Origin: an uncultured Pseudobdellovibrionaceae bacterium
Lineage (GTDB): Bacteria > Bdellovibrionota_B > Oligoflexia > Oligoflexales > Bog-1112
Assembly: GCA_964635325.1 (NCBI GenBank)
Contig: CAZWOL010000049.1
Span: forward strand, 1-22,018
Length of the DNA: 22,018 nt
Direction: 5' to 3'
The translations under genes and the position numbers were made by a program. The notes below the pieces were generated by a model. The model made no database searches. It saw only the letters and a program-made list of their open reading frames with translations, and was not told where the DNA came from. This document shows, one piece after another, positions 92 to 22,018 of the stretch (position 1 is its first letter; every line of letters begins with the position of its first letter).

Positions 92-298
92 CTTCGCCTA
101 TGCCTTACAAAATCTCCATTTGATGAGAAGAAACAGGCAGGCCCGCCTGAACTTAGCACCATGTTGACATACACAAATAGCTACCTAGCAACGAGCATAT
201 CTTTTTTTCCGCGCTTCAAAAATTTTTCTCAATTTTGGAACGTTCTATGTTACTTTTTGACCTTTCAGAGTCAATTTACTGAGATGGAGGGGCCCAAG

Positions 299-3157: not shown

Positions 3158-3181
3158 GTGCATCGAATCCACTGCTTAGCC

Positions 3182-3745
3182 TCAGTAAGAAGAGTGATAG
3201 TATCCTTGCGCCGTTCTGGCAACACCTACAGAGCATCCCGTGGTCAATGCAAGTCCAACAGCAATCCACAAGCCTGCATAGATCTGTTGGGCAACATCTT
3301 TTGATTGCAGAGCTGTCGCGCACGATAGCACCGTAACGACGGCACCGATTGCGACCCCCACAGAGAAGCCAGCGATAGCTCCCTTGTCTACAGGATTATC
3401 AGCATTTTGCTTAGCCTCATTTTTTAAGCTACTCGATTGCGTTAGAGAGTTATTAGATGCTGCTTGCGGCACCACAGTTGTGCTCGTCCCACCTTGGTCG
3501 CCACTGCGATTTCTGCCTTCGCGAGTGCGATTGAGTCGGTCCCGTAGACGATTTCTACCGCTGACTGTAATGTTGGCATCCACATGCGTTTCATTTACAT
3601 CAACTACAGTTGCATTAGCAACTTCATCAACAAAAGTACTGTTGTCGAATACCAATTCATTTGTGAGATTTTGTGCAAGCAGGCTGTGAGGTGCAAGCAA
3701 AGCGAGAACACTAAGAGCAGACACAATGGATGTACGCAACTTCAT
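3182..3745 (-). CDS. secreted/membrane glycine-zipper (Gly-zipper_2TM, SlyB/Pcp-like) protein with an N/S/T- and Arg-rich low-complexity N-region
   Basis: A signal peptide (MKLRTSIVSALSVLALLAPHSLLAQ) is followed by a hydrophilic region with many N-x-S/T triplets. Next comes the Arg-rich stretch RNRLRDRLNRTREGRNR. The C-terminus has two hydrophobic Gly-zipper helices: GAIAGFSVGVAIGAVVTVL and GLWIAVGLALTTGCSVGVA. Confidence 0.6.
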   Translation of the reverse strand: MKLRTSIVSALSVLALLAPHSLLAQNLTNELVFDNSTFVDEVANATVVDVNETHVDANITVSGRNRLRDRLNRTREGRNRSGDQGGTSTTVVPQAASNNSLTQSSSLKNEAKQNADNPVDKGAIAGFSVGVAIGAVVTVLSCATALQSKDVAQQIYAGLWIAVGLALTTGCSVGVARTAQGYYHSSY

Positions 3746-3993: not shown

Positions 3994-4332
3994 ATGAACA
4001 ATAAAATGGGAATGGACGTCTTTGTTGCGTTCCAAGTTATTCCAAGGTCCAGGAACGCTAATAATTTCGAGATTGTGGATAAAGCCATCGAAGTAGTCAA
4101 GAACTCAGGAGTTCCTTACCAAGTTAGCGCAATGGAAACGACGATGATGGGGGATCTCGATCACCTCCTTGCTATTGTCAAGGAAGCCCAGCAACGCTGT
4201 ATCGAGTGCGGGGCTGTCGAGGTGATCACAAACATAAAAATTCATAACAGAACTTCAGAAGCTACAGATAGCTTCTGCACCTACGATCGAGGAGTGACTG
4301 CTAGCAACAGCGTTTTTTTAAAATCGAACTGA
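3994..4332 (+). CDS. UPF0045 (MTH1187/YkoF-like, thiamine/HMP-binding fold) protein
   Basis: The motif VIPRS...VVKNSGVPYQVSAMETTMMGDLDHLLAIVKEA...VEVITNIKI matches the YqgV/MTH1187 family pattern (IPLG...SGLKYQVTPMGT..EGDLDE...VTTIKID). The true start is more likely ATG 4006 or 4012, with an AAGGAAGAG Shine-Dalgarno at 3983-3991. The 3' end overlaps the hflX 3' end convergently. Confidence 0.7.
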   Translation: MNNKMGMDVFVAFQVIPRSRNANNFEIVDKAIEVVKNSGVPYQVSAMETTMMGDLDHLLAIVKEAQQRCIECGAVEVITNIKIHNRTSEATDSFCTYDRGVTASNSVFLKSN

Positions 4333-5676
4333 TTTGAAGCTATCGACCATTGAGGAAAGAGCTCGAATGCGCATGTGCACACCATCTTCTGCAAAATCTT
4401 CGCTCAAAACTTTAGCATTGCGATGGACTTCGGCACGCAGATCATTGCGATCGTAGGCGATCACGATCTCTGCTTCGATCATATCTTTCTCAAAGTGTGC
4501 GATGAGTACATTGCGTAATTTTGCAACATCTTCTTTTGAACGCGCAGACATTGCAACAGCATCAGGAAACTCGTCTTGCAATGCATTGCGTGTAGGCTCG
4601 TCCACACAGTCGATCTTATTCAAAATAAGCAGGCTTGGGGTTGCATCCAGATCGAGCTTGAGCTCCGTCAAAACCCGACGAGTTGTCTCGAGTTGCGAAC
4701 GAAAGGTCGGATCCGCAGCATCGACAACGAAAATAAGCAAAGAAGCATCTGCAGCCTCATCCAAGGTCGAACGAAAGGATGCAACCAAGTCGTGAGGGAG
4801 CTTCTTGATAAATCCGACTGTATCTGATACCAATATACGAGGTAGCGTTTCGGGTTGCATAGCACGTATTGTTGTATCGAGAGTTGCAAAGAGTTTATCT
4901 TCGACAAGAACGTCACTCCCGGTAAGAGCTCGCATCAACGAAGACTTGCCTGCATTCGTGTACCCAACCAAGGCAACCTTAGCTTGGTCCCTGCGACGCT
5001 GTCTGCGTCCTTGTTGGTTTTTATGAATATCTTCGAGCTCATCTTTTAATTCTGCAATGCGATCGCGTATGCGGCGCTTGTCAAGTTCGTGAGCTGTTTC
5101 CCCAATCCCTTTCGCACCGATCCCTCCACCCTGACGATCTTGTCCGACACGATTCATCCGCAAGCGTGGGCTCAAATAGCGTAGTCGAGCGATATCAACC
5201 TGAATGCGGGCCTCACGTGTACGAGCATGTCGGTGAAAAATCTCGATGATCACCCCAGTGCGATCCATGACTTGAGCACCGGTTGCCATCTCAAGATTGC
5301 GCAACTGTGTTGGACTTAGCTCATCATCAAATACGACGGTATCTGCTTTTGGCTCAGCATCTTCATCATCAGACTCTTCAACTTCAGGGGCAGCTTCAAC
5401 AACTTTGTTCTTGCGACGTGGGGCCTGTGCCATAGACTCGATTTTGCCACTGCCTCCGGTGCGTCTACATAGCTCCTGTAGCTTGCCCTCACCAAGAATT
5501 GTTGAATTCTCGGCAATCGAACGTTTCTGCGACAAAGTCCCCACCACCTCAAAGCCAAGGGTAGTGACCAGGCGCCCTAATTCGCTGAGAGAGGCATTGT
5601 GATCCTCCAAGCTAACATTCGGTAATTGCAGGCCAACTAAGATGGTTTTCGGGGGGGTTGTTTGATTATGATGCAA
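4318..5676 (-). CDS. hflX: GTPase HflX
   Basis: An HflX N-domain is present, and DELSPTQLRNLE...VMDRTGVIIEIF matches the HflX linker region. The G1 motif is GYTNAGKSSL, G3 is DTVGF and G4 is NKID. A Lys/Arg-rich coiled segment (RRQRRRDQAKV) precedes G1. The protein carries an acidic insertion (see findings). Confidence 0.9.
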   Translation of the reverse strand: MHHNQTTPPKTILVGLQLPNVSLEDHNASLSELGRLVTTLGFEVVGTLSQKRSIAENSTILGEGKLQELCRRTGGSGKIESMAQAPRRKNKVVEAAPEVEESDDEDAEPKADTVVFDDELSPTQLRNLEMATGAQVMDRTGVIIEIFHRHARTREARIQVDIARLRYLSPRLRMNRVGQDRQGGGIGAKGIGETAHELDKRRIRDRIAELKDELEDIHKNQQGRRQRRRDQAKVALVGYTNAGKSSLMRALTGSDVLVEDKLFATLDTTIRAMQPETLPRILVSDTVGFIKKLPHDLVASFRSTLDEAADASLLIFVVDAADPTFRSQLETTRRVLTELKLDLDATPSLLILNKIDCVDEPTRNALQDEFPDAVAMSARSKEDVAKLRNVLIAHFEKDMIEAEIVIAYDRNDLRAEVHRNAKVLSEDFAEDGVHMRIRALSSMVDSFKSVRF

Positions 5677-5782
5677 GCTAAACTCCAGTATAGAAAGGTC
5701 TTCACGTCCGAATTTATAAACTAAGCAAGCCTTTTCAGCAACTGCTGCTTAATTCAAGCCTATTGCCGCAGTACCGATACGA

Positions 5783-8700
5783 ATGAATCAGGATTCACTT
5801 GGAGTCGATCATAAAATGAGACAAATACAAACACTCATTTACGCATCTTTGCTGCTTGTCTGTTCTTCATCCTGCAAAACACCAGCTCCCAAAATAAATA
5901 AGCGCAACAATTTAACTCCAACATCGGCTCCAACGAACGAAAAAAAAGTACCGAATCACGCTGCAAGCGCAGTGCTCTTCAAAGATATGGATAGTAGAGG
6001 GTCTTATGTTGAAGGAACTTTGAAAATCGGCAAAGCTTTTGACGAAAGCGACATAACTCACTACGTTCTTTACTGGGGAAAATCCGCATCAGAAAAAGTT
6101 CCGAACCTAGTCCCGCTTGCTAAAGTTGACAAGACAGGAGCGAATTTAAAAGTTAGCATCGCTAAAGACACCCAAATCCCCAATACAGCAAGCCATCTTA
6201 TTGTTCTCACAGGGAATGAAAATGGCGAAATGGCCAAAGGAGTTAGCACTAAGATTCACGATTTAGGTATCCCGTTAAACGCTGCACTGAGCTTGAATTT
6301 TCACAAAACAGAAGTTACTGAAAGCCATATTCAAGGAACCCTCACGATAGATCGGGCAATGGATGAAAGTGATCTGAATGCCTATGTGATTTACTGGGGT
6401 AAGTCTACAACCCAAAAACTTTCTCCCACACCTTTGGCCACTTTAAAGAAAGGCGAGGCAAAACTCACCTTTGACCTCGATATGAGTCGCCCCAAGGGGG
6501 CCGTCTATTTTTTGGTATTTGCAAAGAATGATGATGGTGAATCAGAGCGGAGTATAAGCACTCCCATTATCACAGACGGGATACCAACAATCGATATAAT
6601 CAATGCAAAATTTCAAGAGAATGATCCCAATCCAAACACAATTGGAGGAACGATCACATTCGACAAACCCTCAGATTCAACTGAAGTTGTCATTTATTGG
6701 CACAACTCTGGAGACAAAAGTCAAAGTGCTTTCGCAGAAACAAAAACTGGTGAATACAACATTCCTCAATCAACCCAGATACCAGAAGGAATGACGCATT
6801 TCTTGCTTGTTAGCAAAAACAAGATGGGTGAGAGCCTTAGCGGACAACTGATACCGATTATCAAAAGACTTGTTCCTAAAGAAGTTGGGACTGCATCGAT
6901 TAGTAAAAACGACTCGACCAATTTTCAATCATTATCTGCGATACTCACTTTGAATACACCCAATAGTTCAACAATTCAGCAATTTCACTTGTATTGGGGA
7001 CAATCGGAAACGCAAAAACTTCAAGACACACCTTTCCAAACCTATCAAGCAGACACTCCATCAATCCAGCATAGCTTTAATGAAACAACTTTAGCAGAAG
7101 ATGCGAGCCATATTTTAATTTACTCTGCAAACGAATTTGGTGAGAGCCAAACACCAGTCGCAGTAGAAATACCATACAATCTTGAATTACGTCCTAAAAG
7201 TATTGCAAAAAAAATTGAATTTAAAGATACGAATTACAAAACCCAGCATATAAGCGGACAACTCAGCATAGAGAGAGCAGACAACGAAAAGGACCTCACT
7301 GACTATGTCGTGTATTGGGCCAAGGGTGAAGCTAAGGGGGGCTTCATCGTAAAAATCCCCAAAGGAAAAACATCAGACCCCTTGCATATTGACTTTGAGA
7401 GTACAAAAATCCCAGACGATTCTACAGGGTTTTTGGTCTACACAAGCTATCACGGACAAGAGTCTATCGACAAAGCAACGCTTGATGGCATTGATGACGC
7501 ACCCAAAATTGCTAGCCTTGAGTTTACAGATGAATACACAGGTCTAATGCGTCTAGGTGGCGAATTGAAAATCACCCCTCCCCAATTGGATCTCAATTCA
7601 AGCAAGCAGGAGATTTTTAAAAACTCTTTCAAGTCCTATGAAATTTATCTCTATGCTCCTCATAAGAATAAAGAAGCAAAAACAGAAAACTGGATCCGTC
7701 TGAGCTCATTGAAAAATAGGGACAATCCTACCATTAGCTTAGATCAAGAACTCCCAAAAGAAGCCATATCAAACAATGAAATAAAGTTTAAGGTGACCAT
7801 TAAAGACAAGGAAGACTTTGAAGGTCCCGCCTTTGAAAGGACGTTTGAAAAAAAGATCCCACACGTTGCATATGCCTGGTTGCAACTTGGACTTAGCAAG
7901 GATAATCCAACTCAAATCACAGATGATGTCCCCGCAGTCGACAACTACGATTTACGCGTCATCTCAACAGACGGCTCTTGTCCCGAAGCCATTATAGGAA
8001 AAAATATAGAAACAATGAAATTGAGAGCGGGAAACAATCTATCCCAAGATTTTAAAGTCACAACTTGCCAGCTTAAAATTTCTAATCCCAATGAGAAAAT
8101 AAAGATATTGGTTGGTGATCAGACACTCACAGCTCAGCCTTTTTCATCACTCACATCTCTACAAATTGTCGGAGATACTGGATGTGGGCCCGAATGCCTG
8201 TCCAGGAACGAATTCATTGTTGTTTCTACACGAATGCGTAATCAGAACAATCAGCTTGTCATTCACCAAGGAAACTATGTCTACCAAGAAACGTCTGATA
8301 GCTGGGCAAACTGGGAAGAAGAGTTTTTTAAGCCTGCAAAAGATCTTCTCTCAGAAGCTCCTTGGGTCTTTGTACGTGGCAATCGTGAGGACTGCAAAGG
8401 AGCTTATCATGGATTCATACGTTTTCTAGATGTATGGGACTACACAGCACAAAGTCAAAAATGCAAAGAAGTTTCTCATCCCTTCAAATTTGAAAGGACT
8501 GGTGGTACATTTTACATTGCAGATTCATCTGCAGTGCCATCGCATGAGACTTCAAGTGCAGAACAAAAGCAGGGTCTTATTGATGGCCTAAGCAAAACCT
8601 TCAAAGCCATTGATTCAGATGCATCTTCGTCAAATTCAAAATTTTTACTCACAAGCAGCCCGATATGGGCATGCGAACCACAACTTGTCAGCCCCTCAGA

Positions 8701-9139
8701 AATCTGGAACAATGGTGGCTTGCGAAACTGCATAGAGCAAGGGCAGTTCCTTCGGAAGGAATTAGGAAAATTTTTTGACACAAGCAAAAATAATTTACGA
8801 AAAAAAATCTTAGCGGTCATCTCAGGCCGCCTTCACTTTTTTTCAATAGCATCGTTTCAAGATAATGAAGCAATGCAGTGGGTGATCGGCAATGGAGGCA
8901 GCAACCCACTCATCGGATGGTGGAACACGCTTGGCATGCAAATCCCCAACCTGATAACTTACAATCTAGCCATCACATCCGGTGATCGAATAGTTAAGAA
9001 GAGCTATTTTTATAACAATGACTGGGGATTTAGCCTCCTAGAGGCTGATCATGAAAACTGGACTCTCAGCAACTTCGATACTTCAGGAGCTAAAGCAGGA
9101 TACTACCAAGTTAATAGTCAGGACCGCAGCTACAAGTAG
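5783..9139 (+). CDS. giant secreted (lipo)protein: six FN3/PAP-N-like repeats + YAWLQL domain + degenerate purple-acid-phosphatase-like metallophosphoesterase domain (paralog 1)
   Basis: The signal peptide MRQIQTLIYASLLLVCSSSC suggests the true start may be ATG 5816. Six ~100-aa repeats each carry YV(L/I)YWGKS and (F/H)L(I/V)x..N..GES motifs. After them come YAWLQLGLS...C...C, then the phosphoesterase motifs IVGDTG, VIHQGNYVY, FVRGNRED, ISGRLHFF and VIGNGG. Confidence 0.85.
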   Translation: MNQDSLGVDHKMRQIQTLIYASLLLVCSSSCKTPAPKINKRNNLTPTSAPTNEKKVPNHAASAVLFKDMDSRGSYVEGTLKIGKAFDESDITHYVLYWGKSASEKVPNLVPLAKVDKTGANLKVSIAKDTQIPNTASHLIVLTGNENGEMAKGVSTKIHDLGIPLNAALSLNFHKTEVTESHIQGTLTIDRAMDESDLNAYVIYWGKSTTQKLSPTPLATLKKGEAKLTFDLDMSRPKGAVYFLVFAKNDDGESERSISTPIITDGIPTIDIINAKFQENDPNPNTIGGTITFDKPSDSTEVVIYWHNSGDKSQSAFAETKTGEYNIPQSTQIPEGMTHFLLVSKNKMGESLSGQLIPIIKRLVPKEVGTASISKNDSTNFQSLSAILTLNTPNSSTIQQFHLYWGQSETQKLQDTPFQTYQADTPSIQHSFNETTLAEDASHILIYSANEFGESQTPVAVEIPYNLELRPKSIAKKIEFKDTNYKTQHISGQLSIERADNEKDLTDYVVYWAKGEAKGGFIVKIPKGKTSDPLHIDFESTKIPDDSTGFLVYTSYHGQESIDKATLDGIDDAPKIASLEFTDEYTGLMRLGGELKITPPQLDLNSSKQEIFKNSFKSYEIYLYAPHKNKEAKTENWIRLSSLKNRDNPTISLDQELPKEAISNNEIKFKVTIKDKEDFEGPAFERTFEKKIPHVAYAWLQLGLSKDNPTQITDDVPAVDNYDLRVISTDGSCPEAIIGKNIETMKLRAGNNLSQDFKVTTCQLKISNPNEKIKILVGDQTLTAQPFSSLTSLQIVGDTGCGPECLSRNEFIVVSTRMRNQNNQLVIHQGNYVYQETSDSWANWEEEFFKPAKDLLSEAPWVFVRGNREDCKGAYHGFIRFLDVWDYTAQSQKCKEVSHPFKFERTGGTFYIADSSAVPSHETSSAEQKQGLIDGLSKTFKAIDSDASSSNSKFLLTSSPIWACEPQLVSPSEIWNNGGLRNCIEQGQFLRKELGKFFDTSKNNLRKKILAVISGRLHFFSIASFQDNEAMQWVIGNGGSNPLIGWWNTLGMQIPNLITYNLAITSGDRIVKKSYFYNNDWGFSLLEADHENWTLSNFDTSGAKAGYYQVNSQDRSYK
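5969..7852 (+). repeat. six tandem ~100-aa protein-level repeats (FN3 / purple-acid-phosphatase N-domain-like) inside paralog 1
   Basis: The repeats begin GTLKIGKAFDESDITHYVLYWGKS, GTLTIDRAMDESDLNAYVIYWGKS, TEVVIYWHNSGDKS, QQFHLYWGQSETQK, GQLSIERADNEKDLTDYVVYWAKG and SYEIYLYAP. They end SHLIVLTGNENGE, VYFLVFAKNDDGES, THFLLVSKNKMGES, SHILIYSANEFGES and GFLVYTSYHGQES respectively. They are diverged at the DNA level. Confidence 0.75.
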
Positions 9140-9345
9140 CCTTTACGATCTCATTGATTACGGCAAAAACAACCTCGTTTCAATAGATGCTACAACCTTT
9201 AGTAAGCATGCGGCATCTCAAACAAGCCTACCTAAGCATAATCGTAGAGTTCTGCATAATCTTCAAAAGATTGACAACTCTAAAACTATTTTTCAAAAAT
9301 CCAAAAATTTTTCATAACCAGGCAAGTTATCCTCTCCATTCAGAA

Positions 9346-9375
9346 TTGTAAGATTTCCATGTTACGCAATATAAT
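9346..9375 (+). promoter_or_regulatory. candidate sigma70-type promoter for paralog 2 (TTGTAA -18- TATAAT)
   Basis: TTGTAA lies at 9346-9351, followed by an 18-bp spacer and a perfect TATAAT at 9370-9375. This sits ~30 nt upstream of the GGGGGAG Shine-Dalgarno, inside the 265-bp AT-rich spacer between the paralogs. Confidence 0.35.
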
Positions 9376-9404
9376 TTTACAAAAGCCAAAAGCTCAGAGG
9401 GGGA

Positions 9405-12400
9405 GTGCCAGTGAAAAATCGTCTCTACGTCTTGTCCATTTGTGCATTTATGATGTGGGATCTAACATCCTGCGCAAATAAGAACACTGGAGGTCGCGCT
9501 CAATCCGCAGACAACCCCATACCGAGTGAGGAAACTACCCCAGCAAAGCAACCTGACAAAGGTCAAACTCATAAAACTACAGACGCTCCCACTAACGAAG
9601 TAAGCACGTCAACGACCAATGCCACGCCTCCCGAAAGTGGAAAACCAGATGAAGCTACTAATAGGAGCGAACAAAAAGAAGCTAGAGAAAACAGCGCCCC
9701 TGGAACTGGAGGGGATGCTAACGAACCTGAGCTCCCCTTACTCCCTCGAGCAGAAAAAATTGAAGCAGCGACTAAACTCACAACGAACAATGAACTAACA
9801 GGCTCCGTGTGGGTTGAACCTTCTGATCATCCAGAAAGCACTCATGACTATGTCCTATATCTCGGATCAAGTCCTTCTAGCCCCTTTGATGAAAGTAAAC
9901 TATTACTTGTTCGTACACTTCAAGAACTCAAAAATGATCAAGAATCGATTCAATTGCCCCACAAGATTTTAAGCGAACAGGATCAATATCTCCTTGTTGC
10001 ACCTCGCAGCACCGACAAAAAGCTTGGAGCACAGATCAGCATAGCACTATTTCCAATTTCCTATGCTTGGCTTCAACTTTCTACGACAGAAGGTGAATAT
10101 TCCGCTCGAGCCATCACGGAACACGACAGCTGCCCCACAGCTATCATCGATGGCAATGCACAGGATATGAAACTACGTGATAAAGATGAAAAATTTCATT
10201 TCAAAGTTTGTGAACTTAGCATTAAGGATACAGCAAAAAGCTTAATCATCGCTGACAAAGAACTGAAAATCAAACCCCGAAAAAGCATCGAAAGAATGCA
10301 TCTCATCGGCAATACCAACAATGATCAAAATGGATTCTACAGTCCACAATTCCCCAACGTTGCAAATAAGATTACGACAGATAACCCAGAACTCATCGTT
10401 CATCTAGGTGACATGGTCGAAGGAGCCAGCGACTACAATCAATGGGTGAAGCAATTTTTTGAGCCCGCAAAAGAGCTCATGAGTATGGCCCCCTTCGTTT
10501 TTGTACGTGGAGAAAAAGACAAATGCATTGCAGATAGATTCTTTGGCACAACAGACAATAAAAGCGAATGCGAATCTGTATTACCTATCTATAGTTTTAA
10601 AGTAAGAAAAGGAAAGTTCTTTGTACTCGATTCCACGGACAAAGAGCCTGAGAATAGAATGCGCTTAGAAAATGATTTCGCATTCAAATCTATACGAAAT
10701 GGAGCACAACCCAATAATTTTATACTGACTCACATGACAGCATGGGGTTGTATGCCGATTTCGTTAGGAAATCAATGCGAAGACGATGGATACTACTTTC
10801 GGGAAAAATTCTTAAATAAATTCAACCCAGACAGTTTAAACAAGTTTCAAGCAATCATATCAGCTCATATTCCACTATTTGCAATGAACTCGTATGCTAA
10901 GCATCCAATGCAGATTATTGTTGGAAACGGAGGACAGTCGATCCTAAGATACAATGGTCCCATCTCCTATGGAGAGGATCCAAAATTCCGAGAATCAAAA
11001 CCCGATCAACCTACCAACCATACAAGTGACTCTAAGTATGGCTACAGCGTCTTGGAGCCAATTAAAGATGCGTGGCAGCTGACAAGTGTCCATGCAAAAG
11101 ACAATACCAAGGCATATTTTAAGCTAGCCGATGGAAAATTCGAATCTCTTGCAAGACCCCGACCTGAGGATCAAGCGTTGAATGCTGCCAATCAATTGAA
11201 ATCGATTGAGGGATGGGTAACATTTCAAGAAGCTAACGACAAAAATATCGATAGCTATATTTTTTATATTGGAACATCACCAAAAAGCAAATGGCAAGAG
11301 GATAAGGAGATCACCAGGATCTCTACAGACTTGATCGCATCTTTTCGTAAAAATCTAGAACCAAACCAAGCCATAGATTTTTCAGAAATTGTCTATTTTC
11401 CAAGCCTTTCGCAGCTTAGAAATGACCCCAAAAATGAGCAAGATCAATACCTCCTTGTTATCCCATATAATGCTAAAGGTGAGACTGGACCTCCTATTAG
11501 CACACCACTATTTTTTCATAACTATGCCTGGCTCCAACTATCCACCGACTTAACTCAATATGATCTACGAGCCGTCAGTACCGATGTAGGATGTCCTCTA
11601 GTCCAGATCGATGGCAAAACAGAAACTATGGCTGTTCGCGCTAGAAAAGACAAAGACTTTGAGGTTACAGTCTGCAACCTAAAGATTGCAGATACCGTTA
11701 CAGACGTGAAAGTAGCTAACCAAGAATTCAAACTAAGAAAGCGAAAAGATATCAAAAAAATGCATCTAGTTGGGGATACTGGTTTCAATAATTCTTGGTC
11801 CAGCAAGGCAGGTTTTTTTAGCTGGGAAACAGCTGGACTTTATAAAGATTGGCTCTCTGGTGCAAAGCCAATGTTTCCTGCTGTAGCCAACAAAATAGCA
11901 GAGGATAGCCCAGAACTCATCATTCACATGGGTGACTATCTCTATAGCCATACAAAGACATTTGCTCAGTGGAGACAAGAATTCTTCGAACCTGCGAGTG
12001 AGATGTTGAGTAAAGCTCCTCTCGTCTTTGTCCGAGGAAACAAAGAATCCTGCGAAGAACATGGAGATGCCTACAGACGTCTCTTCGATGTTGAGCCATA
12101 TGACAAGGACAGTGCATGTAAGAAGGTCATACCGGCCTATACTATCGAGGTGGCAGGAGGAAAGTTCCTCATCTTAGACTCGTCAGATGCTCAATCCATC
12201 GAGAAGAGCTACAAACAAAAAGGTGATAATTTTTACAATCTCACCGAAACATCTTTAATTCATGATCTGAAAGATTTCGCACAGCATCTTACAGATCCAG
12301 CAACTAACTCCTTTATCATCACACACCGAGATGTCTGGGGCTGCGCACCAAAATCTACTACCACATGCTCACCTGGTGGTTACCTGATGCGAGAGAAGGT

Positions 12401-12788
12401 CCTTAATCAAGATGGGATGGAAAAATTACAGAACATACAAGCGGTCCTATCCGGTCATCTACATCTCTTTGCAATATCATCATTCAAAGATCATGCAATG
12501 CAGATCATCATTGGAAACGGTGGGACTGTGCTCAACACTCCGTACAAGATCGGTGAAGAATATGGCCCCATTTCAAATGATCCAAGTAATGTACAAAAAC
12601 ATGCAGAAGACTATAAGCATGGCTACGCTACTTTAGAACGAAATCAAAATGGCGGATGGACTCTTATCAGTAAATTTACCAAAGGTAGTGATAGAACTTT
12701 TGTCTTGAAGAATAGAAGTATTGAAACTCTACAATGGAATCTACACGAAAGAGAAGAAGACAAAGAGAATTCTGGACAGGAAGAATAA
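9405..12788 (+). CDS. giant secreted lipoprotein with two tandem FN3-like + YAWLQL + purple-acid-phosphatase-like modules (paralog 2)
   Basis: A lipoprotein signal (VLSICAFMMWDLTS-C) is followed by a ~100-aa T/P/E/K-rich disordered linker. Module A is DYVLYLGSSP...YAWLQLSTTEG...HLIGNTNN...IVHLGDMVEG...FVRGEKDKC...ISAHIPLF. Module B is SYIFYIGTSP...YAWLQLSTDLT...HLVGDTG...IIHMGDYLY...FVRGNKESC...ITHRD...LSGHLHLF...IIGNGG. The start is GTG 9405 or, more likely, GTG 9411, with a GGGGGAG Shine-Dalgarno at 9398-9404. Confidence 0.85.
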   Translation: MPVKNRLYVLSICAFMMWDLTSCANKNTGGRAQSADNPIPSEETTPAKQPDKGQTHKTTDAPTNEVSTSTTNATPPESGKPDEATNRSEQKEARENSAPGTGGDANEPELPLLPRAEKIEAATKLTTNNELTGSVWVEPSDHPESTHDYVLYLGSSPSSPFDESKLLLVRTLQELKNDQESIQLPHKILSEQDQYLLVAPRSTDKKLGAQISIALFPISYAWLQLSTTEGEYSARAITEHDSCPTAIIDGNAQDMKLRDKDEKFHFKVCELSIKDTAKSLIIADKELKIKPRKSIERMHLIGNTNNDQNGFYSPQFPNVANKITTDNPELIVHLGDMVEGASDYNQWVKQFFEPAKELMSMAPFVFVRGEKDKCIADRFFGTTDNKSECESVLPIYSFKVRKGKFFVLDSTDKEPENRMRLENDFAFKSIRNGAQPNNFILTHMTAWGCMPISLGNQCEDDGYYFREKFLNKFNPDSLNKFQAIISAHIPLFAMNSYAKHPMQIIVGNGGQSILRYNGPISYGEDPKFRESKPDQPTNHTSDSKYGYSVLEPIKDAWQLTSVHAKDNTKAYFKLADGKFESLARPRPEDQALNAANQLKSIEGWVTFQEANDKNIDSYIFYIGTSPKSKWQEDKEITRISTDLIASFRKNLEPNQAIDFSEIVYFPSLSQLRNDPKNEQDQYLLVIPYNAKGETGPPISTPLFFHNYAWLQLSTDLTQYDLRAVSTDVGCPLVQIDGKTETMAVRARKDKDFEVTVCNLKIADTVTDVKVANQEFKLRKRKDIKKMHLVGDTGFNNSWSSKAGFFSWETAGLYKDWLSGAKPMFPAVANKIAEDSPELIIHMGDYLYSHTKTFAQWRQEFFEPASEMLSKAPLVFVRGNKESCEEHGDAYRRLFDVEPYDKDSACKKVIPAYTIEVAGGKFLILDSSDAQSIEKSYKQKGDNFYNLTETSLIHDLKDFAQHLTDPATNSFIITHRDVWGCAPKSTTTCSPGGYLMREKVLNQDGMEKLQNIQAVLSGHLHLFAISSFKDHAMQIIIGNGGTVLNTPYKIGEEYGPISNDPSNVQKHAEDYKHGYATLERNQNGGWTLISKFTKGSDRTFVLKNRSIETLQWNLHEREEDKENSGQEE

Positions 12789-12892
12789 CGGAAGCGAACC
12801 CCCCTGGCATTTCCGCAATTTTCTAAATTTTCCACTCCCATTCCAGCAACTTATACATAAAGCCTAAAACCCTACCTCACTTTGCCGAAAAC

Positions 12893-12917
12893 TCCTGCAC
12901 CACAGATTTGTGCAGGA
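12893..12917 (+). promoter_or_regulatory. 8-bp-stem inverted repeat TCCTGCAC-N9-GTGCAGGA overlapping the Shine-Dalgarno of the hybrid kinase gene
   Basis: The stems at 12893-12900 and 12910-12917 are perfect with a 9-nt loop. The 3' arm contains the GCAGGA Shine-Dalgarno 7 nt before ATG 12925. Confidence 0.3.
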
Positions 12918-15900
12918 TTCATCAATGGCTCATGATGCAAAAGAAAAAGAACGTCTAGAGGAACTGGCAAGTTTTCACATATTAGGAACTGGACCAGAAC
13001 CTTTGTTCGACGACATTACTTTTTTAGCAGCACGCATTTTCCATGTACCAATAGCTGCCGTAAGTATCCTAGATGAGCATCGCAATTGGTACAAATCCAA
13101 GGTTGGCATCGAACAGGATGAAGTTCCACGCAAAGATGCGTTCTGCAATGTGACTATTGCTGATATGGACCTACTCGTTATCGAGGATACGTTGGAAGAC
13201 GAACGTTTCAAAAACAATCCCTTCCAAATACGTTTTTATGCTGGAGCTCCACTGATCACTTCAAATGGGCTTGCATTAGGGACTCTGTGCATACTTGATC
13301 GCAATCCAAGAAAATTTGCAGCTGAAGACCGCGAACTACTGCTTACACTTGCACGACAGGTGATGAGTCACTTGGAGGCACGCAAGCTTCACCAGATATT
13401 CGAAGAAAAAGAAGAACAAAACAAGCTGATGCGCTACTGCTTGGATGCTGCAATGGTCGGTTTTTGGGAGTGGGACCTTACGACACAGTCGCTTGCTTGG
13501 GACCATAATATGTATCGCCTTTACGGTGTCAAAGAAGGCAAATATACCAACAACTCTGAGGCTTGGGATCAGATTCTCTATGAGAATGATCGCAACAAAG
13601 CTTATGCTGATATTAAGAAATCTTTAGATGGCACAGGTGAATTTCAATCACATTTTCGTGTCAAAACTGATAACACGGGTTTGAAGACCATTGCAGCGAA
13701 AGGAAAGGTACTCTTTTCGAATGAAGGCAAACCCATCCGAATGGTTGGCATCAACTGGGACATTTCTGCAGAGACTGAAAAAGCAGAATTCTTCCGAGGT
13801 ACTTTTGAAAACTCATCACTGCCTATAGCTGTTTTTGATCCCCAAGGCTTATTCTCACGCGTGAACAAAGCATTTGCAAATTTACTAGGGTATACTATCG
13901 ACTTCTTTCCAGGAAAAAAACTCACGACTTTCTTAGATTCTCATGACTTTGTCAAAATTCAGCTCAAAATGGAAGAAGCGGTTCAAATGAAAAGCTCACG
14001 TATCATGAGCTTTGAAAGCCAATGCAGACATATCACTGGTCGCCTAGTACCTGTACTTATACGTACACAACTATTTTTAACTCATGACAAAAGCCCTGCA
14101 TATTTCCTATTGTTTGTCACAGATTTGACGGAGCAGAAAAAAGCAAATGACGAGCTTATCGAAAAGAATAAGGCAATACTTGCGGAACGTAATCGCTTTG
14201 AAAACCTTGTTTTTGCAATCAACCAATCCGCTATTGTTGCACATACAGACACAGAAGGTAACCTAACCTCAGTAAATGCAAAATTCTGTGAAGTTAGCGG
14301 CTATGCTGAGCATGAATTATTGGGACAAAATTTTCGGATGCTAAGCTCAGGTACGCAGTCTGATAGATACTTTCTGAAAGCCTGGAAGGTCCTCAACTCT
14401 GGTGTTGCATGGAATGGAGAGGTCAGTTACTGCAAAAAGAATAAAGAGATCTTTTGGGTTGAAAGCACAATTGTTCCACTCATGAACTCTGATGGAAAAA
14501 TTGATCACTACATTGTCATCAGCTTCGAAATCACCAAACGTAAGCAGCTGGATGATCACCTTCGTGAAAGTCGCGAGCTTGCAAAAAAAGCAAGTCGAGC
14601 AAAGTCGGACTTTCTTTCCAATATGAGTCACGAGATTCGCACGCCACTCAACGGTATCATCGGCATGACAGATCTGCTCGTTGGAACCGAACTCGCAGCT
14701 CCTCAGCGCAAATACGCCAATGCTATTTTAGATTCAGGGAAAGTTTTGCTGCATCTGATCAATGACATTCTTGAATTTTCTAAGATTGAGTCCGGAAAAA
14801 TCGAGTTAGAGATTGGTGAAACAGATTTGGGCCACCTACTCCGTGGTCTTGTTATGCCACACCAATTTCAATGCACATCGAAAAACATCGGCTTTGATTT
14901 TCAGCCCGTCGAATTAGAACAAATGATTTTTGCTGATGGCGGGCGCCTAGGTCAGATCTTGAATAATCTTTTGAGCAACTCTGTCAAATTTACCTCCAAA
15001 GGTAAGGTCTCTCTCAAAGTCGAAATTATGAATCAGACATCTGAAAATATAACCTTGCTCTTCAAAGTTGAGGATACAGGTATTGGCATTGATGCCAAGT
15101 ATCAGAAGCATCTTTTCAAAGCTTTTACTCAGGGTGAGAGTATTTTTCAAAAATACGGTGGTACAGGACTTGGGTTATCCATCGTTAAAAAGCTTATTGA
15201 CTTGATGGGTGGCAAGCTCTCCTTCGAAAGCAAAAGCGGCGAAGGAAGTTCCTTTCAAATCGAAATTACATTCAAAAAATCAGCTACCCTTGTACGAGCA
15301 CACTCTATCGAAAATGAATTCAAGAAAGTTCCTCTCAAAAAATTAAAGGGACGAGTGCTAATTGCAGAAGATAATATTCTCAATCAAAGCATTGTCTATG
15401 AAATGCTTGTGGACCTAGGGTGCCAGGTAGCTGTTGCAGACAATGGACGAGAAGTCTTGCGTCAACTACAAAAAGATAGCTTCGACCTTATCCTTATGGA
15501 CTGTCGCATGCCAGAAATGGATGGCTATGAGTGTACGAAAGCGATTCGTAGCCATGATTCGGAAGCCATCGCAAAACTGAGAATCATTGCACTTACAGCT
15601 AATGCCTCTGCCGAAGACCGAGACCGCTGCCTTGCTGTTGGAATGAACAGCTTCATATCCAAACCGATCACAAAAGCTAAACTTTTTGCGACCCTCACAA
15701 CCTACTTGGGAGACGCTGATGCCCCCGTGGAGCATGAGAAAGCACCTGATGCTCTCAGCGGCAAAGTCGATCACAGCATTATTAATGACCTACTAGCAAT
15801 GGGCCGACGCAAACCCTCGTTTTTCCCACGTCAGCGGGAGCTCTTCACAACTCATGCGAAAGCAAAGCTAGAAACTCTGGCAGCGGAGATAAAAAATGTA

Positions 15901-16122
15901 AACCGTAAGGAAATACGGGAAATTGCACACTATTTGAAGGGATCAAGCGCTGGTCTTGGCTCACTCGAAATGGCAAGGCTTTGCAAAGAACTTGAACTCA
16001 GTGTAGAACGTTTGAGCGAAGAAGAACTTGAGAAATATCGCGCAGATATTAATCGAGAGTTTGATGTCTTTGTAAAGTACTTAAATACAATCATCGTAAA
16101 ACAAGAGGGCGAGACACCGTGA
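12910..16122 (+). CDS. cytoplasmic unorthodox hybrid sensor histidine kinase (GAF-PAS-PAS-PAS-HisKA-HATPase_c-REC-Hpt)
   Basis: An N-terminal GAF domain is present (FLAARIFHVPIAAVSILD...GTLCILDRNPRKF), followed by PAS-like blocks (FWEWDLTTQSLAWD; GNLTSVNAKFCEVSGY...WNGEV). The H-box SNMSHEIRTPLNG has its His codon at 14629-14631. The N-box is LGQILNNLLSNSVKFT, G1 is VEDTGIGI and G2 is GGTGLGLSIVKKL. The REC domain is VLIAEDN...DLILMDCRMPEMDG, with its Asp codon at 15499-15501. The Hpt motif is IAHYLKGSSAGLG, with its His codon at 15928-15930. There is no TM segment. The true start is likely ATG 12925 (MAHDAKEKER); the listed 12910 start is a GTG. Confidence 0.9.
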   Translation: MQDSSMAHDAKEKERLEELASFHILGTGPEPLFDDITFLAARIFHVPIAAVSILDEHRNWYKSKVGIEQDEVPRKDAFCNVTIADMDLLVIEDTLEDERFKNNPFQIRFYAGAPLITSNGLALGTLCILDRNPRKFAAEDRELLLTLARQVMSHLEARKLHQIFEEKEEQNKLMRYCLDAAMVGFWEWDLTTQSLAWDHNMYRLYGVKEGKYTNNSEAWDQILYENDRNKAYADIKKSLDGTGEFQSHFRVKTDNTGLKTIAAKGKVLFSNEGKPIRMVGINWDISAETEKAEFFRGTFENSSLPIAVFDPQGLFSRVNKAFANLLGYTIDFFPGKKLTTFLDSHDFVKIQLKMEEAVQMKSSRIMSFESQCRHITGRLVPVLIRTQLFLTHDKSPAYFLLFVTDLTEQKKANDELIEKNKAILAERNRFENLVFAINQSAIVAHTDTEGNLTSVNAKFCEVSGYAEHELLGQNFRMLSSGTQSDRYFLKAWKVLNSGVAWNGEVSYCKKNKEIFWVESTIVPLMNSDGKIDHYIVISFEITKRKQLDDHLRESRELAKKASRAKSDFLSNMSHEIRTPLNGIIGMTDLLVGTELAAPQRKYANAILDSGKVLLHLINDILEFSKIESGKIELEIGETDLGHLLRGLVMPHQFQCTSKNIGFDFQPVELEQMIFADGGRLGQILNNLLSNSVKFTSKGKVSLKVEIMNQTSENITLLFKVEDTGIGIDAKYQKHLFKAFTQGESIFQKYGGTGLGLSIVKKLIDLMGGKLSFESKSGEGSSFQIEITFKKSATLVRAHSIENEFKKVPLKKLKGRVLIAEDNILNQSIVYEMLVDLGCQVAVADNGREVLRQLQKDSFDLILMDCRMPEMDGYECTKAIRSHDSEAIAKLRIIALTANASAEDRDRCLAVGMNSFISKPITKAKLFATLTTYLGDADAPVEHEKAPDALSGKVDHSIINDLLAMGRRKPSFFPRQRELFTTHAKAKLETLAAEIKNVNRKEIREIAHYLKGSSAGLGSLEMARLCKELELSVERLSEEELEKYRADINREFDVFVKYLNTIIVKQEGETP

Positions 16123-16139
16123 ACAGGATGGGCTTATAA

Positions 16140-16811
16140 ATGCTAACGTTATCACTCAAAAAGATTGCTGTTGTGAGTATGGCTCTTGCGCCTCTAATTA
16201 TTGGTTTTCCAGAAGCAATGGGCGCACGCGACTCAAGCCCACCCGCAGCAATGGAACATAGACCAGTCCTAGAGATCACCGAAAAAAAAGACATCTATCA
16301 TTTGATGGGAAAGATCACTGTTCTCTCTCCTCCGCAAACAGCATGGGATGTGGTTGCAGACTATGAGCAGTACCCCAATTACATCACTGTTGCCAAAGAG
16401 ATCAAGATCAGGAGTCGCAAAGCCAACGATCTTATTATTTGGCAGCAGGCACATGCCAAACCACTCTACCTCTTTGACCTGACTGTCGGTGTCGAGCTCA
16501 AAGTGCATGAGACTCCTCTAAGCTTGATTACATTTGAAGATCAGTTGCACAAAGATTTTGAAATTTTCTATGGAACGTGGACGTTCACACCTGGCCCCAA
16601 AGGCACTGAAGTCGTATATGAACTGACCGCAAAAATGAAAACGATGGTTCCCAACTGGATCATTGAAAAAGTTTTGCATATAGGACTAGAGCGCTGTCTG
16701 ACACAAATACGGGATCAGATTCTGCGCAAAACAGAGCCAGGTTGGAAACCTCAAGCAGCACAAGCCACACCGTCGATACAACCCGCTGAAAAGAACACAT
16801 CTGTCAAATAA
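16140..16811 (+). CDS. secreted SRPBCC-superfamily (polyketide cyclase/dehydrase-like, Bet v1 fold) protein
   Basis: The signal peptide is MLTLSLKKIAVVSMALAPLIIGFPEAMGA. The core ITVLSPPQTAWDVVADYEQYPNYI...FEIFYGTWTFTPGPKGTEVVYEL...VPNWIIEKV is typical of SRPBCC ligand-binding domains. Confidence 0.75.
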   Translation: MLTLSLKKIAVVSMALAPLIIGFPEAMGARDSSPPAAMEHRPVLEITEKKDIYHLMGKITVLSPPQTAWDVVADYEQYPNYITVAKEIKIRSRKANDLIIWQQAHAKPLYLFDLTVGVELKVHETPLSLITFEDQLHKDFEIFYGTWTFTPGPKGTEVVYELTAKMKTMVPNWIIEKVLHIGLERCLTQIRDQILRKTEPGWKPQAAQATPSIQPAEKNTSVK

Positions 16812-16887
16812 GCGCATCGCGAAAAAGATTCAAGCTTGGTAAAAAATAGACACTTGATTGATCTTTCATCTGTATAGGGAGGGGTCT

Positions 16888-18534
16888 ATGCTGCGCTTAG
16901 CATGGCTTTTTGTTTGTGCATTTAGCATCTTGTTCCAAAACTCTGCATTTGCAATGCATCCGCTTCACAAGTGGGTGGAAGATATCGGACCTAAACATTT
17001 TTCAGAACATCAGGATGAGTTTCGAGATGAGTTGCGCAAATATACGGACAAGCAAGGGCGCGTCACATCCGAATTGCAAGCTATATTGAGCGAGATGCAA
17101 CTCCGTTTTTTCCCAGTCTTCAACGAGTCTGCACGCGCAGACTTTCAAGACCGTCTTGCAGATATTGGAGCAAAACATCTCGATACAATGCAGCTGCCAC
17201 GCAGGAACACACCCTTTTGGTTGTTAGAGAAGGGCCCACTTCATAATTATCGTTCACACGCAAAGTTTCCGACTCAAGCAGATGTTGTGATCATAGGAGC
17301 TGGACTCACAGGAGCATCGGCTGCCTATCATCTAAGTCAGGCAGCACTGCAAGGCAAAAGCATTGTTGTACTTGAAGAGGGTCAAATTGCATCTCAGTCT
17401 AGCGGAAAAAATGGAGGTAACTTTCAGCTGCTCCCAGAAAGTTACGTAGGTGACTATACGGGTATGGTTGAAGAACGAGAGAAGTGGTTGACAACACAAC
17501 ATCCTGAATGGACTGCAAAGCACCTTCGAGAAGTTGCCAACAGGCAGGCTAAAGTCCTCTTCTCTTTCAGTTACAAGAATTTCCTACGTTTTAGCGACAT
17601 CATCGAACGTGAAAAAATCGAGTGTGATTTTTCTCCAAAAGGTTGGCTCAAGCTAGCTTTGACTGCTGATGAAGAAGAGGCATTGCGCAGGGACACAACT
17701 TGGATGTTGAGTATGGGTATCGACGCAGGTTTGGAACTTTGGTCACCGGAGTTTATACGTCAGCATCTATTCATAGACACACCTTTTGAAGGACGTTTTG
17801 TTCCGAAGAATGGGAACTACCACCCCTACAAGTTTGTGACTGAACTTCTGTCTCGTTCACTTAGCAAGGGAGTGCAACTATACACTCGGGTTAAAGTTCT
17901 GAAGATCAAAGAGCTCAATGCTGGTGGCGTGCTCATACAAACATCAAAGGGACCATTGAAAGCCGCAAAAGTGATTGTCGCTACGAATAGCGCAACGCCT
18001 AAGTTGCTTGCAGATCTTTCCGAAATCAAAACTCATGAGTCGATGATTATCAACTTAGAGCATGTCGAAGATCGCACCCGTGGAATGACCATCACTGAAC
18101 ATGCAGGAGACATCTACTATCATTTTCCGAAATCCAAGCAGTATCACGACGGACAAGTGGCACGCGGAATGCTGCACTATGGTTTGGATTTTGATGAGAG
18201 CATTCCAGACCAAGACAAAGTTGCGCGTATAGAACCGCACTTTCGTCTGATGAAAGACTTTATGGACGAACGTTTTCCAGATACCGTTGGACAACCTGCC
18301 AGTCGCTTTTGGATAGGTCCCATGGGTTTTACAAAAGATAGAACTCCACTCATTGGTTTTTACCATAGCCCAGAACACCCTAAGCACCAAGACATCGTCG
18401 TTGCTGCAGCATTTCAAGGCTATGGAGGAAGTTTTTGCACACAGGCAGGTTATGTCGCAGCACAGATGGCTCTAAGCGGTCAGGTTCATGCAGATGTTCC
18501 GGAAGAGGTCTTCTCTCCGCTCCGCTTTCGCTAA
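16888..18534 (+). CDS. FAD-dependent oxidoreductase (DAO family) with signal peptide and ~110-aa N-terminal extension
   Basis: A GGGAGGGG Shine-Dalgarno at 16876-16883 precedes ATG 16888 (MLRLAWLFVCAFSILFQNSAFA). The dinucleotide-binding motif DVVIIGAGLTGASAAYHL lies about 140 aa in, and a C-terminal FQGYGGS is present. The ORF track lists the start at 16858. Confidence 0.85.
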   Translation: MLRLAWLFVCAFSILFQNSAFAMHPLHKWVEDIGPKHFSEHQDEFRDELRKYTDKQGRVTSELQAILSEMQLRFFPVFNESARADFQDRLADIGAKHLDTMQLPRRNTPFWLLEKGPLHNYRSHAKFPTQADVVIIGAGLTGASAAYHLSQAALQGKSIVVLEEGQIASQSSGKNGGNFQLLPESYVGDYTGMVEEREKWLTTQHPEWTAKHLREVANRQAKVLFSFSYKNFLRFSDIIEREKIECDFSPKGWLKLALTADEEEALRRDTTWMLSMGIDAGLELWSPEFIRQHLFIDTPFEGRFVPKNGNYHPYKFVTELLSRSLSKGVQLYTRVKVLKIKELNAGGVLIQTSKGPLKAAKVIVATNSATPKLLADLSEIKTHESMIINLEHVEDRTRGMTITEHAGDIYYHFPKSKQYHDGQVARGMLHYGLDFDESIPDQDKVARIEPHFRLMKDFMDERFPDTVGQPASRFWIGPMGFTKDRTPLIGFYHSPEHPKHQDIVVAAAFQGYGGSFCTQAGYVAAQMALSGQVHADVPEEVFSPLRFR

Positions 18535-18535
18535 G

Positions 18536-19276
18536 CTAGCCTTTTAGAGCTTTTGTCAGAAAATCCATAGGTAGCGGAAAGAACGTTGTTGTCTTACCTT
18601 CACCCGTCGAAATTTCTTTCATCGTATCGAGGTAGCGCAAGATAATAGCGCTCTTCTCAGCATCGATAACACGTGCCGCCTCTGCAAGTTTCTTTGATGC
18701 TTCGAGTTCACCTTCTGCGGAGATGACCTTAGCTTTCTTGTCTCGCTCTGCCTGAGCTTGCTTTGCCATCGCTCGTTGCATTTCAATTGGTAAATCGATC
18801 GCTTTGACTTCGACAGCAGAGACTTTGATTCCCCATGGTTCGGTATGTTCATCAAGAATCATCTGCAACTTAGCGTTGATTTTGTCACGATTGGAGAGAA
18901 TCTCGTTGAGTTCAAACTGGCCGATCACAGAGCGCAGAGTTGTCTGTGCAATTTGTCCAGTGGCATGCAGATAGTCTTCGACAGCAATCACGCTACGATC
19001 GGGTTTGTCGACGCGAAAGTACACAACACCGTTAACTTTCAAGGTGACGTTGTCACTGCTGATAATATCCTGTGATGGGACATCCATTGTCACGGTACGC
19101 AGATCCACCCTCTGCATTTTTTCCAATAGGGGGATAAGAATGATCAAGCCAGGCCCTCGAATTCCGGTATAGCGACCGAGCCGAAAAATAACAGCGCGTT
19201 CATATTCATTCAAAATTTTTATGGTATTGAACAATATGAATGCGACCAAAGCCACTAGAAAAATCATTGGTGCCAT
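18536..19276 (-). CDS. SPFH/band-7 (stomatin-like) membrane protein
   Basis: An N-terminal TM helix is followed by [12 protein letters not shown]. The SPFH core runs through ...[26 protein letters not shown]..., and the C-terminus has a coiled-coil with Ala/Glu/Lys-rich repeats. Confidence 0.9.
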
Positions 19277-21530: not shown

Positions 21531-22018
21531 CTCCGTCACAAATTTAGTAAAAGGCAGAACTCTAACATTGTCTATTTGGAAGTCTTTTGTTCCGAGGTGA
21601 ACTTGATAAAAGAAAGGAATAGACGTGCGTTCCGCAAAATAGCGAATAGCAGGTTGGATTTGTTGCTCACCGGTTTTGCATTCCACTGCAAAAATCGGCT
21701 TTTTATCACGAAGCACTACAAAATCGACTTCACGCTTATCCGTATCTCGTATAAAACGCAGCTCCATTCCATAGCCTTCTATATCTTCGATATAATGACA
21801 GTACTTGAGCAACTGAGATGCAATAAGATTTTCAAATTTTGCTCCGGGGCTTTCAATAGACGACCAATCCCAGAGATATAACTTTTTCTCTTTTTTAACA
21901 GCACGTATCTTGGGTGCGCCATAAGGTAAAATTCGAAAACAAATATAAAGATTTTCGAGAATAGACAACCATCTTTCAACCGTCTTGTGATCAACCTGCA
22001 AGTCCTCACGCAAACTAT
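21516..22018 (-). CDS. AAA-family ATPase with C-terminal DUF4143 domain (COG1373-like), 5'-truncated by window edge
   Basis: The C-terminal region has the DUF4143-type pattern ...TVERWLSILENLYICFRILPYG...KKLYLWDWS...FENLIASQLLKY...GMELRFIRDTDKREVDFVV. The reading frame remains open to position 22018. Confidence 0.65.
   Translation of the reverse strand, partial: SLREDLQVDHKTVERWLSILENLYICFRILPYGAPKIRAVKKEKKLYLWDWSSIESPGAKFENLIASQLLKYCHYIEDIEGYGMELRFIRDTDKREVDFVVLRDKKPIFAVECKTGEQQIQPAIRYFAERTSIPFFYQVHLGTKDFQIDNVRVLPFTKFVTELGLP

Follow-up and report, generated by a model that had tools for sequence, protein, structure and literature searches.

Two giant phosphatase-like paralogs and a hybrid kinase in an uncultured Pseudobdellovibrionaceae bacterium: a modest GC dip that is probably ordinary compositional variation

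Contig CAZWOL010000049.1 (assembly GCA_964635325.1), from an uncultured Pseudobdellovibrionaceae bacterium, carries at positions 5783-16122 two giant paralogous genes, here called P1 and P2, and a gene for a hybrid histidine kinase, all of which are lower in guanine plus cytosine (GC) than many of their neighbors. This raises the question whether the three genes form an AT-rich island, as was put forward in the original prediction, which was made from the sequence alone and regarded the region as a horizontally acquired or fast-evolving accessory block of exactly these three genes. The window analyzed here is the complete NCBI contig of 22,018 bases, which belongs to a metagenome-assembled genome (MAG). 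We consider it probable, with moderate confidence, that the "island" is ordinary within-genome compositional variation arising from the nature of the genes, and that the three were not transferred as a block. In composition the three do not form a single unit, and only P1 and P2 are mildly atypical.

A dip in GC is present at the proposed position, although at about 5 points and not the roughly 20 first suggested. GC is 41.7% in 5783-16122 and 46.6% in the rest of the window, with 41.3 to 42.5% in the three genes and 45.2 to 49.5% in hflX, tdk, the SRPBCC gene and hemH on either side (Table 1). Hand counts of 60-nt samples had given 28-38% in the paralogs and about 50-60% in these four flanking genes. 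When all non-overlapping 60-nt windows were computed, the mean was 41-42.5% in P1, P2 and the kinase (standard deviation, SD, about 6), with about 25% of the windows falling within the 28-38% band, and 46-49% in hflX, tdk, SRPBCC and hemH. A few hand-counted samples had inflated a 5-point dip into a 20-point island, which may serve as a caution.

A two-breakpoint likelihood scan placed the low-GC segment at 41.4%, as compared with 46.6% outside, with a log-likelihood ratio (LLR) of 30.6; the borders first proposed score 25.9. The left edge is sharp and lies in the hflX/P1 spacer, where it had been predicted. The right edge, thought to fall directly after the kinase stop codon, is a plateau in which all positions from 15.4 to 17.0 kb are within about 5 log-likelihood units, its optimum being inside the kinase at the start of the REC domain, before the stop codon. 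The left border owes its sharpness to hflX, a housekeeping gene whose GC is high by nature: across 73 other loci it is on average 2.7 points above the GC of its own locus, and in the three closest relatives the excess is 4.7 to 9.3 points. A chimeric assembly as the source of the GC break was ruled out, since an independent Logan assembly of run SRR12712853 is 100% identical to the window over 1759-21468 and reproduces both junctions; assembly artefacts can therefore explain neither the order of the genes nor the two borders of the proposed island.

The dip exceeds chance under a model of independent bases, but not under realistic gene-to-gene variation. When the same likelihood scan was applied to 48 hflX-centered loci of about 21 kb each from other genomes, an LLR of 30.6 or more was reached in 25% of them, and GC differed by 5 points or more in 33%. 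Permutation of gene order gave p = 0.12 for three adjacent genes this low in GC, and p = 0.25 when GC at synonymous third positions (GC3s) was used. P1, P2 and the kinase lie 1.0-1.4 SD under the window gene mean (45.6 +/- 3.0), and the SD of gene GC, 3.0 points in the window, ranges from 2.5 to 3.7 points in the loci of relatives.

Most of the dip is accounted for by the proteins that the three genes encode, together with the GC-rich neighbor hflX. Recoding of each gene's amino-acid sequence with the codon usage of the flank genes divided the coding GC gap of 5.1 points into 3.3 points (64%) of amino-acid composition and 1.8 points of synonymous choice. The encoded proteins have raised shares of Lys, Asn, Ser, Thr and Ile, whereas Arg, Ala, Val and Leu are depleted. 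P1 (0.37), P2 (0.35) and the kinase have GC3s values of 0.35-0.38, significantly below expectation (z -2.5 to -4.6), and flank genes overlap this range: the hydrolase at 0.372, orf165 at 0.338, the oxidoreductase at 0.394 and hemH at 0.399. The original prediction had itself named uniform composition, once amino acids are accounted for, as the outcome that would speak against an island; amino acids go most of the way, and the 1.8-point synonymous remainder stays. As a separate observation, A strongly exceeds T on the coding strand over 5750-13000, across P1 and P2 (AT skew 0.1-0.3), an excess that diminishes in the kinase and right flank.

Codon usage separates the kinase from the notion of a block. 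When synonymous-codon heterogeneity is expressed as summed chi2/df between gene groups, the kinase scores 0.90 with the right flank and 1.40 with the left, and the two flanks differ from each other by 1.64. The kinase likewise clusters with the right flank in oligonucleotide signature (delta* 43-48, tetranucleotide r 0.72-0.78), and its REC-Hpt part (15301-16122) has 44.8% GC. Together with the diffuse right border, this speaks against an island of exactly three genes. P1 and P2 are mild outliers, with delta* of 77-108 against the left flank, where flank segments differ among themselves by 55-71. In tetranucleotides, 5783-16122 taken as a whole correlates with the right flank at 0.82, and the left flank with the right at 0.80.

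Genomic islands classically show a tRNA or tmRNA insertion site, flanking direct repeats and a clean indel among relatives. Pfam scans of all 16 open reading frames (ORFs) found no integrase, transposase or recombinase domain, ARAGORN found no tRNA or tmRNA in the window, and repeat searches found no flanking direct repeats, the only direct repeats being short motif-coding matches between paralogous modules. An Rfam scan returned no RNA family. The absence of an integrase, tRNA and direct repeats at the borders, noticed before by eye, is therefore borne out, and the classical hallmark of a tRNA with direct repeats is absent. The sole borderline mobility element is a DUF4143 fragment at 21516-22013, which lies outside the region. 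IslandPath-DIMOB defines an island by dinucleotide bias in at least eight consecutive genes together with at least one mobility gene (PMC6022643). Here, at most P1 and P2 deviate in dinucleotide composition in a comparison within the contig, and there is no mobility gene. By these operational criteria the region is not a genomic island (PMC6022643). It does share with the compositional islands reported by IslandPath-DIMOB and IslandViewer a contiguous run of lower-GC genes, a somewhat deviant signature in dinucleotides and codons (in P1 and P2) and accessory secreted proteins; it differs from them in comprising two or three genes and not at least eight, in having no mobility gene, tRNA or flanking repeat, and in a contrast of about 5 points of which about two thirds is amino-acid composition (PMC6022643).

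What kind of genes, then, are P1 and P2? P1 combines an array of six repeats with one purple-acid-phosphatase-like module. P2 begins with a lipoprotein-type signal, its lipobox LTSC being read straight from the sequence, followed by a Pro/Thr/Glu-rich tether and two units, each made of one repeat and one phosphatase-like module. Pfam Metallophos (PF00149) matches P1 at 27.8 bits and P2 at 69.4 bits in two stretches, above the cut-off of 21.5. Gene callers start P1 at 5816, giving a protein of 1107 aa (the gene call in L081), and for this reason an exact look-up of P1 from 5783 met no database record. The only part that the two proteins share at length is the module of about 400 aa, and the modules are 26-42% identical to each other. 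A first, word-indexed search had returned P2 alone, missing even P1, and would have made it an orphan; this was rejected, as a module profile in full HMMER recovered 1293 representatives at E <= 1e-3. Nearly every member of the family has a single module and a length of 400-450 aa, and signal or lipoprotein leaders are present in those that were aligned.

Purple acid phosphatases carry five motifs, GDxG, GDxxY, GNH[DE], H and GHxH. The consensus of the bacterial module family, GDTGC / GDYxYR / GNHExC / THRPxWG / SGHxH, follows this pattern and is otherwise well conserved across 22 aligned homologues. All three modules of the window have lost the His of GNHE (GNRE, GEKD and GNKE, with Lys or Arg instead), and two of the three also lack several metal ligands; in the best preserved, the C-terminal module of P2, the change of this His to Lys is the sole one. 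None of the three holds the complete set of metal ligands and catalytic His of a purple acid phosphatase, and the modules may be pseudo-enzymes, judging from these motifs.

The two-domain fold of purple acid phosphatases, an N-terminal beta-sandwich followed by an alpha/beta metallophosphoesterase core, was recovered when a model of the module was searched with Foldseek. The best match was the plant enzyme 3zk4 (E 7.5e-11, TM-score 0.51), followed by the wheat purple acid phytase 6gj2, from a model of low overall confidence (predicted local distance difference test, pLDDT, 57; predicted TM-score, pTM, 0.65) in which the beta-sandwich reaches a pLDDT of 80-90. With purple acid phosphatases and phytases (lupin PPD1, 3zk4; wheat, 6gj2; PF00149) the proteins share the N-terminal beta-sandwich, the metallophosphoesterase core, the motif pattern GDxG / GDxxY / GNHE / H / GHxH in the wider bacterial family, and secretion. 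Unlike them, the window modules lack the GNHE His, occur twice within P2 and are joined to arrays of a hitherto undescribed repeat, about 100 aa long; a search of PDB sequences with the module profile gave no match. No NCBIfam model matched the modules, the repeats or four homologues. The large bacterial family of secreted proteins to which P1 and P2 belong thus matches neither an NCBIfam model nor, by sequence, a solved structure.

The beta-sandwich repeat occurs eight times, six times in P1 and once before each P2 module. An AlphaFold model of the first copy is a seven-strand beta-sandwich (pLDDT 78), which matched only generic Ig/Fn3 folds in the PDB (E >= 0.04); Pfam holds no family for the repeats, and a tandem-repeat scan could not detect those of P1 at the DNA level. 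Neither the repeat domain nor tandem module copies were found in 80 metagenome loci carrying module homologues, and the architecture of P1 and P2 was absent from these loci and from the 150 listed representatives. Arrays of repeats joined to duplicated and catalytically decayed purple-acid-phosphatase-like modules are an unusual arrangement. In a neighbor-joining tree, a crude method, the two modules of P2 were sisters in 99 of 100 bootstraps, while the P1 module joined them in 3 of 100 and grouped with P0005 and P0006 from other metagenomes. This ruled out P1 and P2 as recent tandem duplicates and, with the module identity of 26-42%, indicates that they are old paralogues and not a recent arrival that was then duplicated.

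Some side observations concern these homologues. P0005, the closest (37% identical; L082, 1-1274), is an ORF open to the end of a 4.4-kb contig and may itself be a longer multi-domain protein; its contig also has an AAA_14/DUF4143 gene, as the right end of the window does. The loci of P0006 (L083), of an HflX relative (L087) and of the kinase homologue P0275 (L089) are near-identical in codon usage (distances 0.38-0.46) and may represent one lineage of about 38-40% GC in which module and kinase homologues lie at unlinked loci.

Taken together, P1 and P2 look like lineage-specific, fast-evolving accessory genes, a view that draws on their codon usage, the decay of their motifs and their absence beside hflX in relatives; this part of the original prediction holds up, while transfer of three genes finds no mobility marks to sustain it. 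P1 and P2 would encode lineage-specific secreted proteins or lipoproteins under weak or shifting constraint. Their amino-acid bias reduces GC at the first and second codon positions, and synonymous choice leans to A- and T-ending codons. Being weakly constrained and probably weakly expressed, the two genes would follow the GC-to-AT mutational bias that is general in bacteria (PMC2936535, PMC2936529). With AT-richer, weakly constrained accessory genes under such mutation, P1 and P2 share A- and T-ending codons, more Lys and Asn, less Arg and Ala, and the loss of conserved functional residues (PMC2936535, PMC2936529). The kinase would be a normal resident gene, slightly low in GC as a property of its family.

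Several results weigh against this explanation. The synonymous codons of P1 and P2 together differ significantly from both flanks (chi2/df 3.52 on the left, 2.19 on the right), and AGA makes up 0.29 of their Arg codons as compared with 0.08-0.09 in the kinase and both flanks, an excess that resembles the share of 0.25-0.38 in AT-richer relatives. In 50 metagenome loci, single-module homologues exceed the GC of their flanks by a mean of 2.5 points (the difference is negative in 6% and never reaches -4), so that AT-richness as a trait of the phosphatase family was ruled out. P1 and P2, about 5 points low, run opposite to the tendency of their family to lie above the host genome, and since their deficit is not a family trait a special cause is needed. 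The composition of the two genes was judged within this one 22-kb contig. That relaxed constraint with AT-biased mutation caused the shift, and that P1 and P2 are weakly expressed, are inferences.

As the main alternative, the AT shift of P1 and P2 would go back to an old transfer out of a relative richer in AT. The two genes alone (about 5783-12788) would have been acquired, together or separately, from a donor of about 37-41% GC and partly ameliorated, the kinase being native. We regard this as possible but unlikely. It would explain the deviant codon usage, the AGA share and the departure from the family's GC tendency described above, and it agrees with the contigs of the nearest module homologues, which have 37-41% GC and carry homologues of 41.5-43.1%, the same absolute GC as P1 and P2. 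The grouping of the P1 module with P0005 and P0006 and the absence of both genes beside hflX in the three closest relatives also fit. On the other hand, P1 and P2 are overall nearest in codon usage to the kinase and right flank of the window (distances 0.59-0.61, as compared with 0.80-0.96 to the other genomes sampled), the tetranucleotide correlation of the region with the right flank equals that between the two flanks, and no integrase, transposase, tRNA or direct repeat accompanies the genes. Absence of the genes from the relatives does not amount to evidence of insertion either, since HflX identity is 76% at most and both sides of hflX are strongly rearranged there, and the repeat domain that P1 and P2 share, otherwise unseen, argues for long co-residence. 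If P1 and P2 prove to be real outliers within the full genome, they would offer a modest case of accessory-gene gain in a lineage that has been little sampled.

That the lineage is poorly sampled follows from its closest HflX relatives, which are only 76, 70 and 68% identical (L086, L087 and L088) and, among Oligoflexales MAGs, 64%. P1, P2 and the kinase are beside hflX in none of the three closest loci, where both sides of hflX are rearranged. In a search of genome contigs for HflX, relatives were at most 65% identical among the matches listed, and tblastn of the window proteins against 80 loci found no shared neighbors, so that this search had no bearing on synteny. In L087, hemH (51% identical) directly follows hflX, and an SPFH gene (84% identical), paired with NfeD, lies 5 kb downstream. 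In the window, SPFH and hemH are 13-15 kb from hflX (hemH 14.7 kb) with five genes between, and SPFH has no NfeD partner. The span compared was 10001-17383 of L087 against 4318-5676 and 18536-21530 of the window.

From this arrangement, the SPFH gene and hemH of the window may be remnants of an hflX neighborhood like that of L087, which hints that the variable part could be all that lies between hflX and SPFH (5783-18534) and not just three genes. A lineage-specific insertion or rearrangement of P1, P2, the kinase, SRPBCC and the oxidoreductase into an ancestral hflX-hemH-SPFH neighborhood seems to us somewhat less likely still than the transfer of P1 and P2. The wider spacing in the window and the missing NfeD fit such an event, but the orientations do not suit a simple insertion, as hflX, hemH and SPFH share one strand in L087 and in the window hemH is opposite to hflX and SPFH. 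Furthermore, L086 and L088 have neither hemH nor SPFH near hflX, conservation is lacking on the far side of hflX too (L086, L087 and L088 have a DsbH-like gene nearby that the window lacks), and L087 is the one relative that supports the link.

It has also been considered that P1 and P2, from an uncultured Oligoflexia-like bacterium, might found a class of giant surface lipoproteins not described before. Arrays of new beta-sandwich repeats would display pseudo-enzyme modules, derived from purple acid phosphatases, that now bind phosphorylated ligands instead of hydrolyzing them; the AT shift would reflect fast diversifying evolution where the cell meets a host or prey, and the neighboring hybrid kinase might exert control. 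We hold this to be improbable.

All Pfam domains of the kinase itself score above their cut-offs, the phosphorelay residues H574 (SHEIRTP), D864 (LILMDCRMP) and H1007 (HYLKGS) are intact, and with HisKA, HATPase_c, REC and Hpt it qualifies as a hybrid (unorthodox) histidine kinase. Gene callers start it at 12925. Unorthodox kinases of the ArcB/BarA/TorS type relay phosphate through HisKA-HATPase_c-REC-Hpt. The window kinase has the same domain order with the His, Asp and His residues in place, and it differs from this type in being soluble: it lacks a transmembrane segment and has a GAF and three PAS domains as sensors. The homologues nearest to the kinase, P0273 and P0275 (identities 46% and 36%), precede response-regulator genes, of which none adjoins the window kinase, and have no metallophosphatase nearby; P0275 is 3.7 GC points under its own locus, like the kinase here. 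No kinase was found near the closest module homologues, and among 80 module loci (591 kb of flank) HisKA-HATPase matches occurred in 6, none adjacent, which is about the background density of kinases. A functional tie of the kinase to the paralogs, at which the original prediction hinted, is therefore not conserved elsewhere, and adjacency in this one contig is its sole support. The kinase stop codon is 17 nt from the start of the SRPBCC gene, as compared with 121 nt between P2 and the kinase, and the kinase, SRPBCC and oxidoreductase genes are probably one transcription unit on account of this short gap.

The reading of P1, P2 and the kinase as one accessory block, acquired or co-evolving, with the kinase sensing or regulating something tied to the phosphatase-like proteins, is very improbable, the least likely of those considered: the three genes are adjacent on one strand with a gap of 121 nt after P2, all are in the lower GC range and the codon usage of P1 and P2 does not differ significantly from that of the kinase (chi2/df 1.12), but the kinase cannot be told from the right flank in codon usage or signature, lies closest to the SRPBCC gene, contains the maximum-likelihood right border, and has one homologue elsewhere with the same GC deficit; its nearest homologues have no metallophosphatase nearby, and module loci show no enrichment in kinases.

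Table 1. Genes and sequence features of the 22,018-nt window, in order of position
Feature	Position	Strand	GC (%)	Description
gap	161..1297	+		Left of the region; ORF as found
Pentapeptide-repeat protein gene		+		Left of the region
Metallo-beta-lactamase-fold protein gene		+		Left of the region
tdk		+	47.2	Left of the region
Orphan membrane protein gene	3182..3745	-		Left of the region
Thiamine-binding-like protein gene		+		Left of the region; converges with hflX
hflX	4318..5676	-	48.8	Pfam GTP-bdg_N, GTP-bdg_M, MMR_HSR1; left border gene
Maximum-likelihood low-GC segment	5660..15410		41.4	Two-breakpoint scan
P1	5783..9139	+	41.3	In the region; 1118 aa; signal peptide, six beta-sandwich repeats, one purple-acid-phosphatase-like module
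P1 six tandem repeats	5960..7864	+		About 100 aa each; identity 14-39%; core motif like YVxYWG
P1 phosphatase-like module	7865..9139	+		Degenerate: GDTGC / GNYVYQ / GNRED / TSSP / GRLH
P1-P2 spacer	9140..9404		35.5	265 nt; promoter-like sites 9271-9300 and 9346-9375 (consensus matches only)
P2	9405..12788	+	41.8	In the region; 1127 aa (gene callers 1125)
P2 first repeat copy	9726..10055	+		Core motif like YVxYWG
P2 N-terminal module	10056..11132	+		Strongly degenerate: GNTNN / GDMVE / GEKDK / THMT / AHIP
P2 second repeat copy	11133..11516	+		Core motif like YVxYWG
P2 C-terminal module	11517..12788	+		Best preserved: GDTGF / GDYLYS / GNKES / THRD / GHLH; Foldseek best matches 3zk4 and 6gj2
Hybrid histidine kinase gene	12910..16122	+	42.5	In the region; GAF-PAS-PAS-PAS-HisKA-HATPase_c-REC-Hpt; soluble
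SRPBCC gene	16140..16811	+	45.2	Right of the region; same strand as the kinase
FAD oxidoreductase gene	16858..18534	+		Right of the region; same strand as the kinase
SPFH gene	18536..19276	-		Right of the region
Alpha/beta hydrolase gene	19319..20452	+		Right of the region
hemH	20439..21530	+	49.5	Right of the region
DUF4143 fragment	21516..22013	-	40.0	Right of the region; ORF open at the contig end; lowest-GC gene of the window

A scan for promoters and terminators gave counts at or below the shuffled expectation and no usable operon boundaries. Some minor features of the flanks were also observed. For the gap ORF, Met47 (nt 299) is the probable start, as its NAD-binding domain begins at residue 49 and its first 46 residues resemble read-through from upstream sequence. 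The orphan protein of 187 aa carries a signal peptide; its middle is of low complexity and its C-terminal region hydrophobic, and no Pfam family matches it. Its gene adjoins a spacer of 248 nt with 39% GC (3746-3993). Short overlaps occur between the converging thiamine-binding-like gene and hflX (15 nt, 4318-4332) and between the hydrolase gene and hemH on the same strand (14 nt, 20439-20452). The DUF4143 fragment is probably the C-terminal part of an AAA_14-type ATPase.

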